IMG/VR virus record: IMGVR_UViG_2574180227_000019
Direction: 5' to 3' (one strand)
Length of the DNA stretch: 33,201 bases
Source of the DNA: a virus
Taxonomy: Duplodnaviria; Heunggongvirae; Uroviricota; Caudoviricetes
Shown: positions 3,651 through 33,201 of the stretch, one piece after another
Layout of the letters: each line of letters begins with the position of its first letter
Position numbering within the stretch: position 1 is the first letter of the stretch
Program-made: the position numbers and the translations under genes
The notes under the pieces: model-generated
Seen by the model: the letters and a program-made list of their open reading frames with translations, nothing else
What the model was told of the DNA's origin: nothing
Databases searched by the model: none

Positions 3651-4084
3651 TCCCCCTTAATATCAGCATAAAAAATCATGGGTTCCCGACTGCCGTCCGG
3701 CAGCGTGATTTCAACAAATAATGAAAGTTGCTCGTGCGCCGTTCGTTCAGCACGACACACAACATCCGATGCAACGCCGCTCTGACGAAGCCATGCCAGC
3801 GCCTCATCCGCATACGCCTGTGCACGACTTACCACCGAAGTAAGCGTTTTTTCCCGGCTCAGCAACCACAGACGGGAGCCTATGGGGTATTCCCGGAAGC
3901 TGTCACCCCACCATCCACGGCGATCGCGGGTACCATCTGGTATGACATCTGATGCCAGGGCTCGACGATCAGTAAACAGTGAGATAATCACTGCCGTCTG
4001 CAATGTATTGTCTGTCAGAAGATCTGCGCCATTCAGTTGCAGTGCACCATGCCCCTGTTTCCATATCACGGCAATATCAGCCAT
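3647..4084 (-). CDS. Baseplate protein (Mu gp46-like)
   Basis: Start re-chosen at the ATG at 4082-4084 (MADIAVIWKQ...), preceded by GGAGGA; the longer track ORF (to 4213) would overlap the upstream gene by about 135 nt. Confidence 0.6.
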   Translation of the reverse strand: MADIAVIWKQGHGALQLNGADLLTDNTLQTAVIISLFTDRRALASDVIPDGTRDRRGWWGDSFREYPIGSRLWLLSREKTLTSVVSRAQAYADEALAWLRQSGVASDVVCRAERTAHEQLSLFVEITLPDGSREPMIFYADIKGE

Positions 4085-4691
4085 TTTCCGGTCCTCCTGT
4101 TTTACTTCCTTTGCCGTTGTCATGGTGCACATGTCCGGAATAGGTGATCCCCGCAATCTTGGCTTCAGACATAGTAAATGTGCCTTTTGACATACCGGTT
4201 CCATCGATCGCAAGATTGCCTTTCACATGCAGATTTTTTTCCACGATGACATCGCCGGTGAAGACCGTTTCAGGGGTATCAACGCTCACGCGCTCATCAG
4301 CAAAAATCTCAAGCGTCCGGCAGGTGATGATGATGCGTCCGTCTTTTGTCAGGCGAATGCGGTGCCCTTCGTAGTGATAAAGCCCACTGTCGCCGGAAGT
4401 CAGCCCGGATGGGCGGTAACGCCGGTCATCAACCACCAGAACAACGGCCTGATCACGCTGACCACCAGGACAGGCGAAGAATAGCTCCGCCCCCGGTAAG
4501 GGTACGCTGATTTGTCCGTACTGCTGTGGCCGTTCAACATCATCAAACGTTTCCCCCTCCATTCCGGTAAGCTGTACATTCTGCATTTTCAGCTCATCAC
4601 GGATACCGGTAAGAACCCCCCGTCCAATCAGAAGACGCACCCCACGCATAACGGGGGCTATAAGGCGGCTGAAAACCTCTTCATTTATCAT
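4077..4691 (-). CDS. Baseplate assembly / spike protein (gpV-like, Mu gp45-like)
   Basis: 204 aa ORF, ATG at 4689-4691; position between the gpD/P-like gene and gp46-like gene. Confidence 0.6.
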   Translation of the reverse strand: MINEEVFSRLIAPVMRGVRLLIGRGVLTGIRDELKMQNVQLTGMEGETFDDVERPQQYGQISVPLPGAELFFACPGGQRDQAVVLVVDDRRYRPSGLTSGDSGLYHYEGHRIRLTKDGRIIITCRTLEIFADERVSVDTPETVFTGDVIVEKNLHVKGNLAIDGTGMSKGTFTMSEAKIAGITYSGHVHHDNGKGSKTGGPENG

Positions 4692-5811
4692 TAAAGGTGA
4701 TCCCCTGTTTTTTCATCTGCTGATGGATAAAGGCATCCACGCCACCGGCATCATTTCCGCCCCGACCTTTACTGTCAGGCTCCGCAGGAACAATAAAACC
4801 ATCACGGGGGGCAAGAATCAGCCGCGTGGTTTCGCCTTTTTGTGCGTCCAGGGAGAATTCAACCTGGCAAATCAGCAGATCACGCTGGTCAATACCAAAC
4901 CGTGAAGCGGTAACGCGCGTCAGCAGATTAAGATCCCACAACGTGCCGTCTGAGCGGAACCAGGTACGCACCACGGCGGTAAAGCGGGAGGAACGGGCCA
5001 CTGCCCGGCGCATTTCCCGTAATCCCCGCTGTGTGGCTCCGCTGGTATCAATGTGATGATCGGCGAGAACAATTTTCGGACGGTAACGGGTAACACCTTC
5101 GTCATTCACCACCCCGACCGGTGCAGACAGGCTGGCTGGTTTTGCGCTGTCACCGGATTTGCCGCCTCCGCGCCCGTGTCCTCTGATTCGGTATTCGCTG
5201 TAGCGCATACGGTGGTCATCGTTATAAATGGCCTCAAGCAAATTCTCACCCAGTACAAGCGTATCGGTCTGCTTGCTTCCAGCCTGAGTAAAAACCAGTT
5301 CACCCACAGCGTTACTGGTTACCAGAACCCCACGATGCCGTGCGGCTCGTGTGAGTGCATCCGCCACTGTTTCTGAGTTCTCAAGCGTGAAAGATGCGAA
5401 CGGTTTCTCTGCCGTGACATCATTAACCTGCCAGCGAACGCTGATACCAAACGGCGCACACAAATCAGCGGCTATCTGGGCCAGCGTCCGGTTCCGCCAC
5501 TGACTTCCCTGGTGAACAGCAGAGCAGTCAACCAGATCACCTGTTTTATCGCGGCCACTGATAGTAATTTGATAACGCGTGGCGCTGATACTCTGATTCA
5601 CCTGATCCAGCCAGCCGCTGATGACTGTCTGACCGTTAATTTTCAGTGTCACTGACTGACCGGGCGAGATGATCGCCGGAACCGGTTCACCGGGGAGCAT
5701 AAGGCCCAGCTCGAATGATCCCGCAAGATGTTCAAGAGAACGTCGTACACTGACCGTCACCCAGCCGGTAAAAATCTGGCTGCCAAGATACAGCTCCACT
5801 TTACTGTTCAC
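4681..5811 (-). CDS. Tail protein P (late control gene D / gpD family, baseplate hub)
   Basis: 376 aa ORF, GTG start at 5809-5811 with GGAGG six nt upstream; N-terminus MNSKVELYLGSQIFTGW... is typical of the gpD/Mu P family as remembered. Confidence 0.65.
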   Translation of the reverse strand: MNSKVELYLGSQIFTGWVTVSVRRSLEHLAGSFELGLMLPGEPVPAIISPGQSVTLKINGQTVISGWLDQVNQSISATRYQITISGRDKTGDLVDCSAVHQGSQWRNRTLAQIAADLCAPFGISVRWQVNDVTAEKPFASFTLENSETVADALTRAARHRGVLVTSNAVGELVFTQAGSKQTDTLVLGENLLEAIYNDDHRMRYSEYRIRGHGRGGGKSGDSAKPASLSAPVGVVNDEGVTRYRPKIVLADHHIDTSGATQRGLREMRRAVARSSRFTAVVRTWFRSDGTLWDLNLLTRVTASRFGIDQRDLLICQVEFSLDAQKGETTRLILAPRDGFIVPAEPDSKGRGGNDAGGVDAFIHQQMKKQGITFNDK

Positions 5812-28126: not shown

Positions 28127-28223
28127 ATTTCCTGTTCCTTATTTTCAGTTTACAGGCGCAGGCAGTCCCCTGACGCGAGCGCCATAATTAAAATGAAGTG
28201 ATATTTAAAGATTTAATGCGGTG

Positions 28224-28754
28224 TTATTTGTTCAGTCCGGCGTCCTGTTCAAAAGGCTCGACATAAAAACTTTCAGCGCCTTTATTCACCTTAATACCGG
28301 CAATGTCTTTCACCGCATCCGGCTCCGCCAGGACAGCTTGCTTATTCACTTCCTCTTTCGTGCGGATGAAGCGCTCAAGGCCCATACGGCGCAGCATTTC
28401 AATCACGCCTTCCACATCACGGCTGACGCTGCATGATGGCGTTCCCAGCCGCCATGACACCGTTCCGGTGGTCAGATTGGCTGTTTTGGTTTCACCGCCG
28501 TTCGTCAGCTCATTGCGGTTGGTTTTACACCAGTCCTGAATCCCTTTAAAAAGCACTTTGATTTCTTTTTTAAGGTTTTCAATCTGCGGCGTATAACGGG
28601 CGGTAATTTCTGCCACTTCGTCATTCATCGCTGTTTCCAGGCGCAGCGCCTCACGCTGCATATCCCCAAAGCGTCGGATATCGCGGCTGACTTCTTCGCG
28701 GGTCTGTGGTGCGGCCTCGGCTGCGGCCTTTAATTTTGTAACGCGTTTAGCCAT
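28224..28754 (-). CDS. gam: Host-nuclease inhibitor Gam (Mu Gam family)
   Basis: 176 aa; ...FGDMQREALRLETAMNDEVAEITARY...WCKTNRNELTNGGETKTANLTTGTVSWRLG...GLERFIRTKEEVNKQAVLAEP...PFEQDAGL closely parallels Mu Gam as remembered; AAGGA Shine-Dalgarno. Confidence 0.85.
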   Translation of the reverse strand: MAKRVTKLKAAAEAAPQTREEVSRDIRRFGDMQREALRLETAMNDEVAEITARYTPQIENLKKEIKVLFKGIQDWCKTNRNELTNGGETKTANLTTGTVSWRLGTPSCSVSRDVEGVIEMLRRMGLERFIRTKEEVNKQAVLAEPDAVKDIAGIKVNKGAESFYVEPFEQDAGLNK

Positions 28755-28765
28755 TTTGTTTTTCC

Positions 28766-29059
28766 TTATTGCAGTGTGCCTGATGCTTTATGCACGCGGT
28801 GGTGTTTAATGATGGCATCCGCTCCAAAATCCTGTGCAGATGCCTGAAATTCCGCTGAGAGGAAATGAATAATTGCAGGACTGTGATACTGGAGAATACT
28901 TGCATAAACATCACAGAGTGACGTCGGGCTGTTCTCCGTATCACGTTCTGTTTTCACATCCACACCAATCTTTTCATGCACTTCAACACAGTCATTGCCT
29001 GCCAGCTTTTCGTCATGCGAAACATTCTCAAATTCAAAAATAACGCGTACTTTGCTCAT
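28766..29059 (-). CDS. Small early protein, paralogue B of a tandem pair
   Basis: Start re-chosen at the ATG at 29057-29059 (MSKVRVIFEFENVSHDEK...); the N-terminus parallels the adjacent gene. Confidence 0.45.
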   Translation of the reverse strand: MSKVRVIFEFENVSHDEKLAGNDCVEVHEKIGVDVKTERDTENSPTSLCDVYASILQYHSPAIIHFLSAEFQASAQDFGADAIIKHHRVHKASGTLQ

Positions 29060-29063
29060 GGAA

Positions 29064-29336
29064 TTACCCCTGCTGATTAAATTCATTACCTTTAATAACC
29101 CCGGAACTCATGTTCATATCTTTCATGAGCGCTCTGGCTTTCATTGCCACAAGTTCAGCAAAGTCTCTGCTTTCCGCGAGCATAACCACCCCAAAAATCA
29201 TGGCGGGTCCATCACCTTTCTGCTTTATCCCGGTTGAACGTATGTCCAGACTTACCCCCATGTGCACTGTTTCATCAGCGTTTTTATGGATAACGTGCTC
29301 CTTGTATTCGAAAATAATGCGTACAACTTTACTCAT
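29064..29336 (-). CDS. Small early protein, paralogue A of a tandem pair
   Basis: 90 aa (MSKVVRIIFEYKEHVIHKNADE...), GAGGA Shine-Dalgarno, ATGA-coupled to the upstream gene. Confidence 0.45.
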   Translation of the reverse strand: MSKVVRIIFEYKEHVIHKNADETVHMGVSLDIRSTGIKQKGDGPAMIFGVVMLAESRDFAELVAMKARALMKDMNMSSGVIKGNEFNQQG

Positions 29337-29614
29337 CCTCTGGTCCTCGTTCTGTTTGGATAACTGACCCGGCGTCTGACCTCACGGCAGAACCGAATCA
29401 TGGCATTAAAGGCTTCTTCCTCCGTCACCGCTTCCGGTATCCCCGGAACCAGTAACTGCTCCTGTTCATCACGTCCATGACGCGCCATAACCTCAATCAC
29501 ATGCCGTACTGTGGCAGGCTTTCCGGCAACTATCGGCAATGCACCTTCCGGCAGGACGTAACCAAACTCAATGAGACCGCTCGACCACGCCCACGCAATC
29601 AGATTTCGTTTCAT
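29333..29614 (-). CDS. Hypothetical early protein
   Basis: 93 aa with strong GGGAGGTG Shine-Dalgarno. Confidence 0.45.
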   Translation of the reverse strand: MKRNLIAWAWSSGLIEFGYVLPEGALPIVAGKPATVRHVIEVMARHGRDEQEQLLVPGIPEAVTEEEAFNAMIRFCREVRRRVSYPNRTRTRG

Positions 29615-29615
29615 C

Positions 29616-29870
29616 TCACACCTCCCAGTAAACCGTGCATCCGCTTATGCGGGTGGCCTTCACACGGCGGCGCAGGCCGTTGGTCTGTATGGTGATTTCA
29701 ATTTCACCGGTTCCCTGCACGTTGCCTACCGGCGGCGTGGTTTTCAGTGCAAAACGTTGTGGGTAGCGCTTACTGCGTTCCAGTACCGCACCGGCAAGTT
29801 CGGTCAGACGGCGCGCGCTGTTCAGGGAGTCGAATAAATTCATTTTGTTACCGCAGGATTGCATATTCAT
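29616..29870 (-). CDS. Hypothetical early protein
   Basis: Start chosen at the ATG at 29868-29870, preceded by GAGGTG; the track start at 29882 has no Shine-Dalgarno. Confidence 0.4.
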   Translation of the reverse strand: MNMQSCGNKMNLFDSLNSARRLTELAGAVLERSKRYPQRFALKTTPPVGNVQGTGEIEITIQTNGLRRRVKATRISGCTVYWEV

Positions 29871-29882
29871 ATAACACCTCAT

Positions 29883-30104
29883 TTAGCTGACTTGTTTCGC
29901 ACCAACAGAACGGCATATTCCGCTGTAAACTTCTGTCGCACCTTCGCGATCAAGTCCGGCAGATATCACCATTCGTGTGCGGTCATTAAATTCAAAAAGT
30001 AAATCGCCACATTCTTTATTTTCGGCCAGTGAAATCACCTTCACGTTATCGAAATTAACCAGGTAAAAGCGTCCGTAAATATCAGGAATATAAAATACCG
30101 CCAT
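29883..30104 (-). CDS. Hypothetical early protein at the Mu kil position (function not verified)
   Basis: First gene after B; ATG at 30102-30104 preceded by AGGTG (the track start at 30110 is GTG). Call is by synteny only. Confidence 0.4.
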   Translation of the reverse strand: MAVFYIPDIYGRFYLVNFDNVKVISLAENKECGDLLFEFNDRTRMVISAGLDREGATEVYSGICRSVGAKQVS

Positions 30105-30106
30105 AA

Positions 30107-31039
30107 TCACACCTGTGAGAGTAATTCAGGGTTGGTATAAACCTCTTTAAAGGCCGCATTAATATGTTTTTCTGTCAGCGCCGCGCCTTCACCACTGGCG
30201 GTGATCCATGCCTGGTTAAGCGTATGTGTCAGAACACGTAATGCTCCCGGTTTTTCAGCGATAGCCTGCATGACAGCCAGCTCGGCCTCACCACTGATAC
30301 CCCACGCCCTGGCAATAGCCAGCACATCCGCCTTTTTGGCCTTGCGAAGTTGTTTTGTACGGGCAAGACGGCTGAACAGGCGCGATAAATCATCAACGGC
30401 GCGGCGCCCCCCCTTAAACAGTCCGCGCGGGTTACCAATAAGCACCATCCCGATCCCCGTGGCGTCCTGGATTGCCCGGAGTTGCTCCAGACCGTCAATA
30501 CCAAGATGATCCGCCTCATCCACAATCACCAGTCCACGCGTTCCCATCAGGCGACGGCGGATGGCGCGGGATAACGCCCCTTTGTTCGCGCGGGTATAAT
30601 CAATCCCCAGCGCATCGGCCAGCTCCAGCAGACACTCCGTGACGCTGGAATGCGCGGGAGACAGGGTGATCATCCAGGTGTTTGGTTGCTCCTGGCAGTA
30701 ATTACGGGCGGTGGCCGTTTTACCCACCCCGGGCACGCCCACTATGACGTTAATACAGCCCATCAGGCGGACCGCCTGAAACAGCGCGCGCAGCTCCTGG
30801 ACTGTCTGCGTTTCCACAAACTGCGGCGGCTCGGGCAGTGCGCTTTGTTTATTCCAGTTCTCATACCAGGAACGCAGGGAAGCAGCCACAGCAGCGTTAT
30901 CGCCTTTATATTTTCCCTTACGGAAAGCCGATAATGTGCCATCGGAAATTCCCGCCTCTCTGGCGATGGCATACTGCGTCAGTACGCCGCCATCAATAAG
31001 TTCATCAATGGTCTTGATTACATCGTTAATATCAGTCAT
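30107..31039 (-). CDS. B: Transposition target-DNA activator B (MuB-like AAA+ ATPase)
   Basis: 310 aa, directly downstream of the transposase; Walker A GVPGVGKT, Walker B-like VIVDEADHL, N-terminal HTH-like segment. Confidence 0.85.
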   Translation of the reverse strand: MTDINDVIKTIDELIDGGVLTQYAIAREAGISDGTLSAFRKGKYKGDNAAVAASLRSWYENWNKQSALPEPPQFVETQTVQELRALFQAVRLMGCINVIVGVPGVGKTATARNYCQEQPNTWMITLSPAHSSVTECLLELADALGIDYTRANKGALSRAIRRRLMGTRGLVIVDEADHLGIDGLEQLRAIQDATGIGMVLIGNPRGLFKGGRRAVDDLSRLFSRLARTKQLRKAKKADVLAIARAWGISGEAELAVMQAIAEKPGALRVLTHTLNQAWITASGEGAALTEKHINAAFKEVYTNPELLSQV

Positions 31040-31110: not shown

Positions 31111-33201
31111 TCAGGCCAGCGGGTCATTTTCTTTTAATTTCGCTTCCAGCAACTGCAATCCCCGCTGGAAATTACGCTCGTATTCTTCATCAGGTTCATC
31201 ATCAACGGCAGGTTGCTGAACGGCCACCGTATTACCCACCGGGCGGTAGATGTTTTCCAGCCATGGCTCCTGCGGCTTGTGCTCCAGCACGTTGACAACC
31301 TCATCCTCGGCATCACGGATTTTTTCCTCTGCGCGTTTACGCATACCTTTAAGGCGCTGCTGCTGTTTGTAGTATTCCGCGCTGACCGGGAAGGCTTCGC
31401 GTTTATTGCCGTCCCATACCGCCTCGCAAATCACGCTGCCATCCGGGCGACGTACGGTAATTCGTTCGGCATCATGAATGTCATAGCTGATAAGCACTTT
31501 GCGGCCATGTTCATCACGCAGCTCGGGCGCGTAGTAAATATTATTCAGCCAGCGTATTTCACAGCGTCTTACAGGGCGTTCCACCATCGGCCGGAACATG
31601 TCCCGCAATTCCACATCGGACAGCCATTCAATTTCCGTGTCCTCTTCTGCCAGGCGTTTTTTTCTGAACTCCGCCGGGCTGTAATGTTTACCGTTCGGCT
31701 TCATGGGTAATTCATCGTGCGGCCGGTTGTTGTACCACTCAACGCCGTCACGAATGGCATCAATCAGTTCAGACCAGGACGGTAAATCACGCATCGCTGA
31801 CTGCTGCCGGGCGTTCAGCCGCTTGCCCTGTTGCAGGGCAGTGAATGCCGAGCGTAAATCGCGGTTGGTTTTGCGTAACGTCTCGCGATCTGCACCTTTC
31901 CCGAAATAGGTGCGGTATTTACGGGCTATGCGCATCGGTAATGTGCGGTTAAGCCGTTCGATAATGCCCCGTCCCTGCGGATTACCGGCAATCCCGGTCG
32001 GGTGATTAATCCCCAGTCGCGGTAGTATCCCCACAATCTCCTTATCCAGGATGTCGGCGGTTTCCCCGGAGCCATTATCCGAGTAATACAGAAACGGTTT
32101 GCCGTGATGTCGAATACCGTGCTGTATGGCACCGGCTACGGCGAAAACATTTTCAGCCAGGTCAAGGCTCCAGCCCACCACAAAGCGTGTACCGCCATCG
32201 ATAACAAAGGTTACTTCCGGTGCAAATGGCCGCCCGTGAACCGGGTGCCTGCATTTCAGCTTCATGCCGTGACCGTCACCAATCCAGACATAGTTCACCG
32301 GCATTCTGGACCAGTCGCGGCGCGTGAATCCCTCAAGCTGGCGGTATTCACTGCCGGTCACCCGGCCTTTTTGTTTCACCACTTCCGGCAGTTTCTTCAT
32401 TGCGCGGCGAATGGTGTCATAAGACGGCATGATATCGAGCATATAAGGCTCATCAGCGTGCCGGTGCTGCCATTCAGCAACAAAATCCTCGTAAGCCTCG
32501 GTCATTGGTCGGCCGTTTGACTGGCGATACTGCGCCAGAAATTCGGGCAGCCAGTTAATATCTTCGGCTTTTATTTCCTGACGTTTACCCGGTGCCAGTA
32601 AAAGCAGGCGTTCAGCGGCGTTCTGTGCCTTGTTAAAGGCCGCAATCCAGCGTTTCAGCGTGATTTCACTCAACACGCGGCTGTTTCCCTTTTTGGCGTT
32701 CGCCGTCTCAACCATTGCCACTATGCGCTCGTCCAGTTGTGAGCGTGACAGGCGGTCAACGATAAAACGGATGGCTCTAGCGCAGCTGAAACCGGGTTGT
32801 TGCGCGAATTTCAGCACCTCGCTGACAATCGCGATTCGTGCCTCTGCCACCTGGCGCTGTTTTTCAGTCAGGGCATTGAGGCGTTCGACCATCAGTTGTG
32901 GTGAACCGCGATATGCCTCCACCGCATCAACCACGTCAGGTGAGCGTCTGGCCTTTGTCACCACCGGAACCGGTGATTCATCGACTTTTTGAGTCATCAG
33001 TTGCAGGGCGTAGCGTTCACGTAATGCCTGCTGCGTCACTTCAGGTAAACAGTCGATGCTGTATTCAGTTGCTTTAGAGCCTGAGCGACGACGGGAACAA
33101 CAGCTTTTCCCTTGTACGTAACGTTGTAATGCCTGGCGAATACCTTTTGTTGTAGCAGGCATTCCGGGCGCGCCAATCAGTTCTTTTGCAATGACATACA
33201 T
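31111..33201 (-). CDS. A: DDE transposase A (MuA-like); start at or just beyond the window edge
   Basis: 696 aa; N-terminus MYVIAKELIGAPGMPATTKGIRQA... parallels the MuA N-terminal DNA-binding domain as remembered; followed by the B gene as in Mu. The ATG falls on the last 3 nt of the window. Confidence 0.85.
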   Translation of the reverse strand: MYVIAKELIGAPGMPATTKGIRQALQRYVQGKSCCSRRRSGSKATEYSIDCLPEVTQQALRERYALQLMTQKVDESPVPVVTKARRSPDVVDAVEAYRGSPQLMVERLNALTEKQRQVAEARIAIVSEVLKFAQQPGFSCARAIRFIVDRLSRSQLDERIVAMVETANAKKGNSRVLSEITLKRWIAAFNKAQNAAERLLLLAPGKRQEIKAEDINWLPEFLAQYRQSNGRPMTEAYEDFVAEWQHRHADEPYMLDIMPSYDTIRRAMKKLPEVVKQKGRVTGSEYRQLEGFTRRDWSRMPVNYVWIGDGHGMKLKCRHPVHGRPFAPEVTFVIDGGTRFVVGWSLDLAENVFAVAGAIQHGIRHHGKPFLYYSDNGSGETADILDKEIVGILPRLGINHPTGIAGNPQGRGIIERLNRTLPMRIARKYRTYFGKGADRETLRKTNRDLRSAFTALQQGKRLNARQQSAMRDLPSWSELIDAIRDGVEWYNNRPHDELPMKPNGKHYSPAEFRKKRLAEEDTEIEWLSDVELRDMFRPMVERPVRRCEIRWLNNIYYAPELRDEHGRKVLISYDIHDAERITVRRPDGSVICEAVWDGNKREAFPVSAEYYKQQQRLKGMRKRAEEKIRDAEDEVVNVLEHKPQEPWLENIYRPVGNTVAVQQPAVDDEPDEEYERNFQRGLQLLEAKLKENDPLA

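Follow-up and report, generated by a model that had tools for sequence, protein, structure and literature searches.

The small protein Gnarl2 of phage Mu, the product of gene 7 (gp7), also called E6 or Mup07 (NP_050611.1; NC_000929:4784..5047; orf63), was described by Silas et al. (Nat Commun 2025; PMC12373910; bioRxiv 10.1101/2023.04.06.535777). Its expression in wild E. coli downshifted the O-antigen ladder of strains ECOR1 and ECOR22 and raised T5 infection 10^5-6-fold in both; ECOR3 was not among the strains with Gnarl2 effects (PMC12373910). The authors proposed a non-enzymatic seroconversion, for superinfection exclusion or receptor masking (PMC12373910). Gnarl2, which received its name in 2025, is among the first small phage proteins that alter the O-antigen without a phage-encoded enzyme. 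Here, we analyzed two adjacent genes, g1 and g2, of a 33,201-nucleotide (nt) stretch of viral DNA (IMG/VR record IMGVR_UViG_2574180227_000019; the whole stretch is called the window below), the content of which is a Mu-like transposable prophage. Our sequence and profile comparisons lead us to regard g1 and g2 as genuine paralogues, albeit very distant ones. We would class them as two new and strongly diverged members of the recently recognised kind of protein to which Gnarl2 belongs, in a two-copy layout that is lineage-specific.

Like Gnarl2 (87 amino acids, aa), the products of g1 and g2 are small accessory proteins from the early operon of a transposable phage, and their genes lie between B/kil and gam. 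All three begin with M-[AS]-K-V and a hydrophobic strand, share a co-linear hairpin/loop/helix layout and contain no enzyme-sized domain; scans of g1, g2, and Mu gp7 with Pfam, NCBIfam, and PADLOC assigned them to no family. For a broader comparison, Mu-like loci were gathered via Gam, 23 from one-genome-per-species contigs and 80 from IMG/VR, and every open reading frame (ORF) upstream of gam was inspected. The ORFs with the M-[AS]-K-V start comprised the subtypes g1, g2, A (Mu gp7/E6), B (gene 7 of phage D108, 97.8% identical), B2, and C, the last found in Kluyvera and other Enterobacteriaceae. A word-indexed search of 5.8 billion proteins with g1 and g2 returned close E. coli relatives only. 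A D type (MSNK...IFTFE, 93-98 aa) and several singletons came in addition from a profile search of the 5.8 billion proteins and an exhaustive HMMER search of 1.84 billion representatives. The family is very small, with only 35 representatives at E <= 0.001 and about 35 clusters at 50% identity among the 1.84 billion. All members with a named source organism come from Enterobacteriaceae, and all are called 'hypothetical protein'.

The hallmarks of the family are the M-[AS]-K-V-hydrophobic strand, which opens a long predicted beta-hairpin, a loop that often reads P...GP.D, and one or two helices followed by a variable tail. With 90 and 97 aa, g1 and g2 lie within the size range of 85-100 aa; they carry the strand motif, and their hairpin, loop, and helix align co-linearly with those of the other members. 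Their position in the early operon between B/kil and gam is also that of the family genes in the 39 Mu-type loci and in the D-, C-, and X-type loci.

Family profiles were built from about 150 relatives, grouped by single-linkage clustering at 45% identity, and compared with hhalign. On the basis of these profiles, g2 is a firm member of the Mu gp7/E6 (Gnarl2) superfamily. It matched the D type (99.4% probability, E 8.5e-22, 93 columns), the B type (97.4%, E 1.2e-11, 73 columns), and the family from which g1 and g2 had been removed (99.2%, E 2e-19, 83 columns). Membership of g1 is probable, and we hold it with good confidence: its profile matched the bridging singletons (95.1%, E 3e-8, 72 columns), the family without g1 and g2 (94.8%, E 5e-8, 78 columns), and all others taken together (96.3%, E 1.5e-9, 77 columns). 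Mu gp7 in turn matched the bridging group (97.0%, E 1e-10, 75 columns), the B type (93.8%, E 1.8e-7, 68 columns), and the rest of the family (95-96%), and gave a full-length match with phrog_2230, the PHROG of g2 (E 0.009). Controls with reversed sequences yielded E values of 0.55-0.74, and 21 comparisons with seven unrelated neighbour families gave E values of 0.009-0.8 and probabilities of at most 4.6%. When leave-group-out hidden Markov models (HMMs) were run against 6132 sequences, g1 was recovered at E 2.8e-7 by the HMM lacking g1 and g2, and Mu gp7 at E 3.6e-7. Five rounds of jackhmmer, started from either Mu gp7 or g2, converged on the same 216 sequences, with all g1, g2, and gp7 types among them, and recruited no unrelated ORF among approximately 5900. 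Started from g1 alone, jackhmmer found nothing beyond g1.

Several other affiliations were considered and rejected. A relationship of g1 or g2 to the Gam family received hhalign probabilities of only 0.1-4.6%, and neither protein matched any Pfam entry, Phage_Mu_Gam (PF07352) included, at E values up to 0.1. A specifically closest relationship of g1 to Mu gp7, which the eye may see in GDGPAMIFGVVML versus DEGTLAGMVALLVL, is statistically unsupported (E 0.024-0.1). The highly repetitive 710-aa protein P0122 scored E 3e-24, with 13 short repeats matching profile positions 35-54, and was read as a repeat artefact. A tblastn search of isolated phages with g1 and g2 retrieved only the Mu-like insert in two Stx (Shiga toxin) phage records.

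A preliminary description of the locus had pointed to two small genes 4 nt apart next to gam with a common N-terminal motif, and it was correct in every detail. BLASTP aligned residues 1-37 of the two proteins with 15/39 identities (E 0.005, single comparison). The narrow families of g1 and g2 matched in hhalign with probabilities of 81-87% and E values of 1e-5 to 4e-6 (at best 86.9%, E 4e-6, 33 columns). Set against the controls, the N-terminal likeness is above chance. It is not limited to the first dozen residues either, as g1 deprived of its first 13 residues still matched the family in the same register (73%, E 3e-5, 56 columns). The paralogy that had been proposed holds at the superfamily level, mostly via intermediates, but the direct likeness between the two ends at about residue 34-37; the C-terminal halves alone gave no significant match (E 0.12), and the proteins are assigned to different PHROGs (4107 and 2230).

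The shared N-terminus deserves separate consideration. The M-[AS]-K-V-hydrophobic strand is kept in every subfamily, even where the Gam proteins of the phages are only 55% identical, and the version MSKV(V)R(I/V)IFE is closer between g1 and g2 than either is to other subtypes. Over the first 12 aligned codons, 28/36 nt are identical (78%), and of the eight residues that are identical, two are encoded by different codons in g1 and g2. The DNA 5' of the two start codons, Shine-Dalgarno motifs included, is unrelated. In the first 11 codons of g2, dS, the synonymous divergence, is 0.04, versus 0.28-0.53 elsewhere. One locus of the same lineage, L055 (IMGVR_UViG_2654587996_000001, 3796-4188), is without g1 and most of the 93-aa gene that precedes it. 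There, g2 is joined to the upstream context of g1, and the junction falls within the ~28 nt common to the 5' ends of g1 and g2, which suggests that the two paralogues recombined unequally or that a one-copy state has survived here as a relic. To judge from these sequences, the shared N-terminus is more than a translation-initiation region, yet special. The closer MSKV(V)R(I/V)IFE motif, the low dS at the 5' end of g2, and the L055 junction make it likely that the 5' ends have undergone some local homogenisation or recombination. The extra-high likeness of the first 12 codons looks to be partly a product of such homogenisation or of shared constraint.

A survey of copy number across related prophages, which the preliminary description had suggested, set the lineage of the window apart: both g1 and g2 occur in 38 of its 41 loci, whereas exactly one copy is present in each of the 39 Mu-type loci, the Gam proteins of which are 55-59% identical to that of the window. 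Of the other three loci, one is the L055 deletion, one has damaged ORFs, and one lies on a contig beginning at gam. The Mu-type copy always sits in the gp7 slot, in the order B, kil, gp6, a copy of type A, B, or B2, gp8, gp9, gam, and the three subtypes are mutually exclusive in that slot across all these loci. Gene 7 itself differs between Mu and its close relative D108, being type A (Gnarl2) in Mu (4784-5047) and type B in D108 (NC_013594.1, 4732-4998). In loci with the D type and other types (L108-L116), a single copy immediately precedes either gam or a DUF3164 gene present in its stead, and this copy is usually adjacent to a homologue of the 93-aa gene. No copy was present in 21/23 loci of Mu-like prophages from other genera (Gilliamella, Pseudomonas, and others). 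Among 5426 complete E. coli genomes, 228 contained g1 (271 places) and 232 contained g2 (274 places).

The position of g2 is syntenic with that of the single copy in the D-type loci L108-L113. We conclude that g2 is in the ancestral slot before gam and that g1 is an extra copy specific to this E. coli prophage lineage, which is rich in Shiga-toxin-producing strains (STEC), because g2 sits where the single copies of related phages sit. That a tandem duplication had made the two genes each other's closest relatives was not borne out, as g2 is nearer to the D type and the D108 type than to g1. With g1 so much more distant from g2 than the single-copy genes of other phages are, the pair did not arise by recent tandem duplication; g1 is the product of an old duplication followed by very fast evolution, or it was imported.

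The selection acting on the genes was estimated from pairwise Nei-Gojobori ratios of nonsynonymous to synonymous divergence (dN/dS, omega) within the lineage of the window. The ratios were 0.29 for g1 and 0.36 for g2, compared with 0.09 for B, 0.095 for gam, 0.105 for kil, and 0.126 for the 93-aa gene. Relative to gam, dN was 4-fold higher in g1 and 9-fold higher in g2. The N-terminal strand of g1 is tightly constrained (omega 0.07), and the central helix is constrained in both genes (omega 0.10 in g1 and 0.22 in g2); hairpin tip, loop, and C-terminal tail are variable (omega 0.35-1.4). For the first 11 codons of g2, omega is little informative, as dN and dS are both ~0.04. Gene-wide positive selection was not seen in g1 or g2, omega being below 1 in both.

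Two allele classes of g2 exist that are ~53% identical (HDEK.../SAEF... versus HEVK.../TDEL...; e.g., L003:2067-2360), together with chimeras between them such as P0047. The divergent class (60-80% nt identity) was present in 26/233 E. coli records. The first 11 codons of g2 are nearly identical across the classes, as expected of cassette exchange at a conserved 5' end. In 35 loci, the allele types of g1 and g2 occurred in all combinations, with no co-variation. The proposal that the genes are under diversifying pressure is therefore upheld in part: dN/dS is above the value of about 0.1 of B, gam, and kil, and g2 classes reassort, but omega remains below 1 gene-wide and both strand and helix are conserved. 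Judged by these substitution patterns, g1 and g2 are functional genes that evolve fast, like accessory genes, under purifying but relaxed selection.

The features of the locus are compiled in Table 1. The early operon is encoded on the minus strand in the order A, B, 75-aa gene, kil, 93-aa gene, g1, g2, gam, and the Gam protein of the window shares 55% identity with Mu Gam. E. coli SJ7 (NZ_CP044315.1) matches region 28200-30150 with 100% identity, and 232 of the 5426 complete E. coli genomes, many of them of Shiga-toxin producers, contain a match to this region.

Table 1. Features of the early region of the Mu-like prophage in the window
Feature	Position	Strand	Description
Transposase A	31111-33201	minus	
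B	30107-31039	minus	MuB-like ATPase
75-aa gene	between B and kil	minus	
kil	29616-29882	minus	Kil-like gene
93-aa gene	29333-29614	minus	phrog_1518, PHROGs label 'host nuclease inhibitor'
g1	29064-29336	minus	90 aa, MSKVVRIIFEYKEH..., WP_032180721.1, phrog_4107 (E 5e-59)
g1-g2 spacer	29060-29063	minus	4 nt, read from sequence
g2	28766-29059	minus	97 aa, MSKVRVIFEFENVSHDEK..., WP_032182843.1, phrog_2230 (E 2.3e-36)
gam	28224-28754	minus	host-nuclease inhibitor, downstream anchor of the module, PF07352 (E 2.6e-40)
Homologues of Mu gp11 and gp12	also in early operon	minus	

The genes are closely packed. The ATG of g1 overlaps the stop codon of the upstream 93-aa gene as ATGA, the TAA stop of g1 (29066-29064) is followed after the 4-nt spacer by the ATG of g2 at 29059, and 11 nt separate the g2 stop from the gam start. 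A GAGG/AGGGG motif lies ~7 nt before each of the two start codons, the Shine-Dalgarno-like AGGGG of g2 being situated within the 3' end of g1. Promoter-like or terminator-like sites were not seen on the minus strand between 28000 and 30200. Thus organised, g1 and g2 are co-transcribed early-operon genes of a transposable Mu-like prophage. The RefSeq annotation gives the same 90-aa and 97-aa genes, both as hypothetical proteins. The g2 frame is open for another 27 nt in the 5' direction, as far as an ATG (29086) within the 3' end of g1, from which it would encode 106 aa (28766-29086, MNLISRGNS-MSKV...). We favour the 97-aa form, to which the family-wide conservation of the MSKV/MAKV start and the RefSeq annotation point.

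The 93-aa gene, which is without a Pfam family, was rejected as a further family member (hhalign probability of 0.1% versus g1 and g2). Its homologues adjoin the Gnarl2-like gene, on either side, in L108 (3732-4004), L111 (3732-4004), L114 (452-706), and L115 (2119-2373), and the two genes may form a recurrent two-gene module. An apparent second tandem pair in these four loci was dismissed, as the 90- and 84-aa neighbours are homologues of the 93-aa gene. A DUF3164 gene (PF11363) takes the place of gam directly downstream of the Gnarl2-like gene in L108 (4303-4941), L109 (4303-4941), and L114 (719-1336). In L002 (E. coli 23CRST049, NZ_AP045822.1, 506-2947), the IS66-family element ISEc22 is inserted between g1 and g2 and replaces the last ~10 codons of g1; g2 and gam are still present downstream.

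What might the two proteins do? With moderate confidence, we favour the reading that g1 and g2 are two diverged Gnarl2-family members of the early operon with, by analogy, a Gnarl2-like function at the cell surface. Because of the distant homology and the shared genomic context, we infer that they are small binders of the Gnarl2 kind. Each would probably be a small, non-enzymatic binder of a host factor. Their early expression would disturb the biosynthesis of O-antigen and lipopolysaccharide (LPS), and the changed cell surface could exclude superinfecting phages or mask receptors. With two divergent copies, each having exchangeable allele cassettes, the range of host strains or serotypes might be widened or shifted. 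Seen this way, a host-surface-modifying accessory protein that occurs in one version in the relatives is probably present in two versions in this prophage lineage. Both the LPS-directed function and the rationale of a broadened specificity are drawn from the analogy with Gnarl2.

Several observations weigh against this proposal. The direct hhalign comparisons of Mu gp7 with g1 (2.0%, E 0.024) and g2 (1.0%, E 0.057) are not significant, and as their E values fall inside the control range, the link runs via intermediate subfamilies only. Residues 38-90 of g1 alone align with the family in register, but weakly (30%, E 5.5e-4). The bit scores of g1, at about 28-29, would correspond to E values of the order of 0.1 if scaled to 1.8e9 sequences. 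Pairwise identity of g1 and g2 to Gnarl2 is below 20%, so the function may differ. AlphaFold2 models, computed from the narrow family alignments, reached a predicted local distance difference test (pLDDT) score of only ~55 (56 and 53 for the two models); the topology common to these low-confidence models is an N-terminal hairpin (~4-19/24-39) followed by a long helix. Structure searches brought no useful match: Foldseek with both models gave none at E <= 0.001 against BFVD, and a profile search of the PDB with the family alignment gave nothing below E 0.04, the matches being irrelevant. As to Gnarl2 itself, the phenotype comes from heterologous expression, and affinity-purification mass spectrometry yielded no clear target (PMC12373910).

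It could be argued that g1 and g2 are not true paralogues at all, and that they share the first dozen or so codons through gene conversion or a common constraint on initiation or the N-terminus, the rest of g1 being unrelated. The early end of the direct likeness, the non-significant C-terminal halves, and the unproductive jackhmmer search from g1 would fit this explanation, as would an N-terminal comparison with g2 that in one run aligned just 12 columns. The DNA identity of the first 12 codons, the low dS at the start of g2, and the L055 junction inside the shared 5' stretch point the same way. Yet g1 without its first 13 residues, and even its residues 38-90, match the family at E values below those of all controls (>=0.009), and an HMM built without g1 and g2 finds g1. 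Length, predicted hairpin-plus-helix topology, and genomic slot are alike, and the unrelated Shine-Dalgarno-containing DNA before the start codons and the differing codons for two of eight identical residues also speak against this explanation. We regard it as quite unlikely. Still harder to credit is that g1 and g2 form one unit, e.g., a heterodimer via their long beta-hairpins, instead of two independent specificities. Their near-obligate co-occurrence (271 versus 274 places in E. coli genomes), the 4-nt spacing with co-transcription, and the long predicted N-terminal hairpins, which could pair, are compatible with such a complex; however, the alleles of g1 and g2 combine freely, a single copy suffices in every other lineage, and L055 retains g2 alone.

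A rather doubtful alternative, though one to be taken seriously, grants membership in the superfamily and assigns g1, g2, or both another job, directed at a different host target such as a defence system, a nuclease, or cell division. The other genes of Mu's semi-essential early region provide the comparison here. The low identity to Gnarl2 without a direct profile match, and the neighbourhood of kil, gam, and a gene that PHROGs labels 'host nuclease inhibitor', are in line with this possibility. The variable hairpin, loop, and tail and the reassorting cassettes are typical of accessory genes that switch targets, and the affinity purification with Gnarl2 had pointed to no clear target. On the other hand, the sole experimental datum for any family member is the alteration of LPS (PMC12373910), and the conservation of N-terminal strand and central helix across all subfamilies suggests a shared core mechanism. 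The favoured reading, a Gnarl2-like surface function, can also be carried further, to a modular system of non-enzymatic seroconversion or surface remodelling in which the variable hairpin, loop, and tail determine the serotype-specific O-antigen biosynthesis protein to be bound and the STEC lineage has stacked two specificity modules. Under this version, which we consider improbable, g1 and g2 would each swap allele cassettes by recombination at the conserved 5' end. On that assumption, several E. coli serogroups, among them O157, O111, and O103, which are typed clinically, would have their O-antigen remodelled upon induction or early expression.

The analysis delimits the Gnarl2 family as a small family of enterobacterial Mu-like phages with a conserved strand and helix and a variable hairpin tip, loop, and tail. 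A surface-modifying, anti-barrier family is thereby brought into order, with a mechanism that is deduced by analogy. The lineage with two highly diverged copies is present in about 4% of the complete E. coli genomes, Shiga-toxin producers being frequent among these, and the g1 and g2 variants constitute a natural set for specificity mapping. By analogy with Gnarl2, these prophages are predicted to be able to alter the O-antigen of the host cell, which can be tested.

Gnarl2 and D108 gp7 are the closest known entities. The layout differs from that of Gnarl2, which is a single copy in Mu with gp8 and gp9 before gam, whereas g1 and g2 are two copies abutting gam. The D108 gp7 type fills the gp7 slot in D108 and in many Mu-type prophages as an alternative to Mu gp7. 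Like g2, D108 gp7 belongs to phrog_2230; unlike g2, it has 89 aa, starts with MAKVIFEF, shows only ~25% identity, and occurs once, with gp8 and gp9 after it. Enzymatic seroconversion modules of temperate phages include the Gtr glucosyltransferase clusters, O-acetyltransferases, and the iap of phage D3 plus enzymes. If the Gnarl2 analogy holds, the outcome would be the same, namely a prophage-driven change of the O-antigen that affects the adsorption of other phages. Unlike these modules, g1 and g2 encode only 90-97 aa and no transferase or membrane-enzyme domain, and the early-operon genes that we inspected, over ~26.5-33.2 kb of the window, included no seroconversion-type enzyme. Their mechanism would accordingly differ from that of the enzymatic modules, as interference with host enzymes instead of catalysis.

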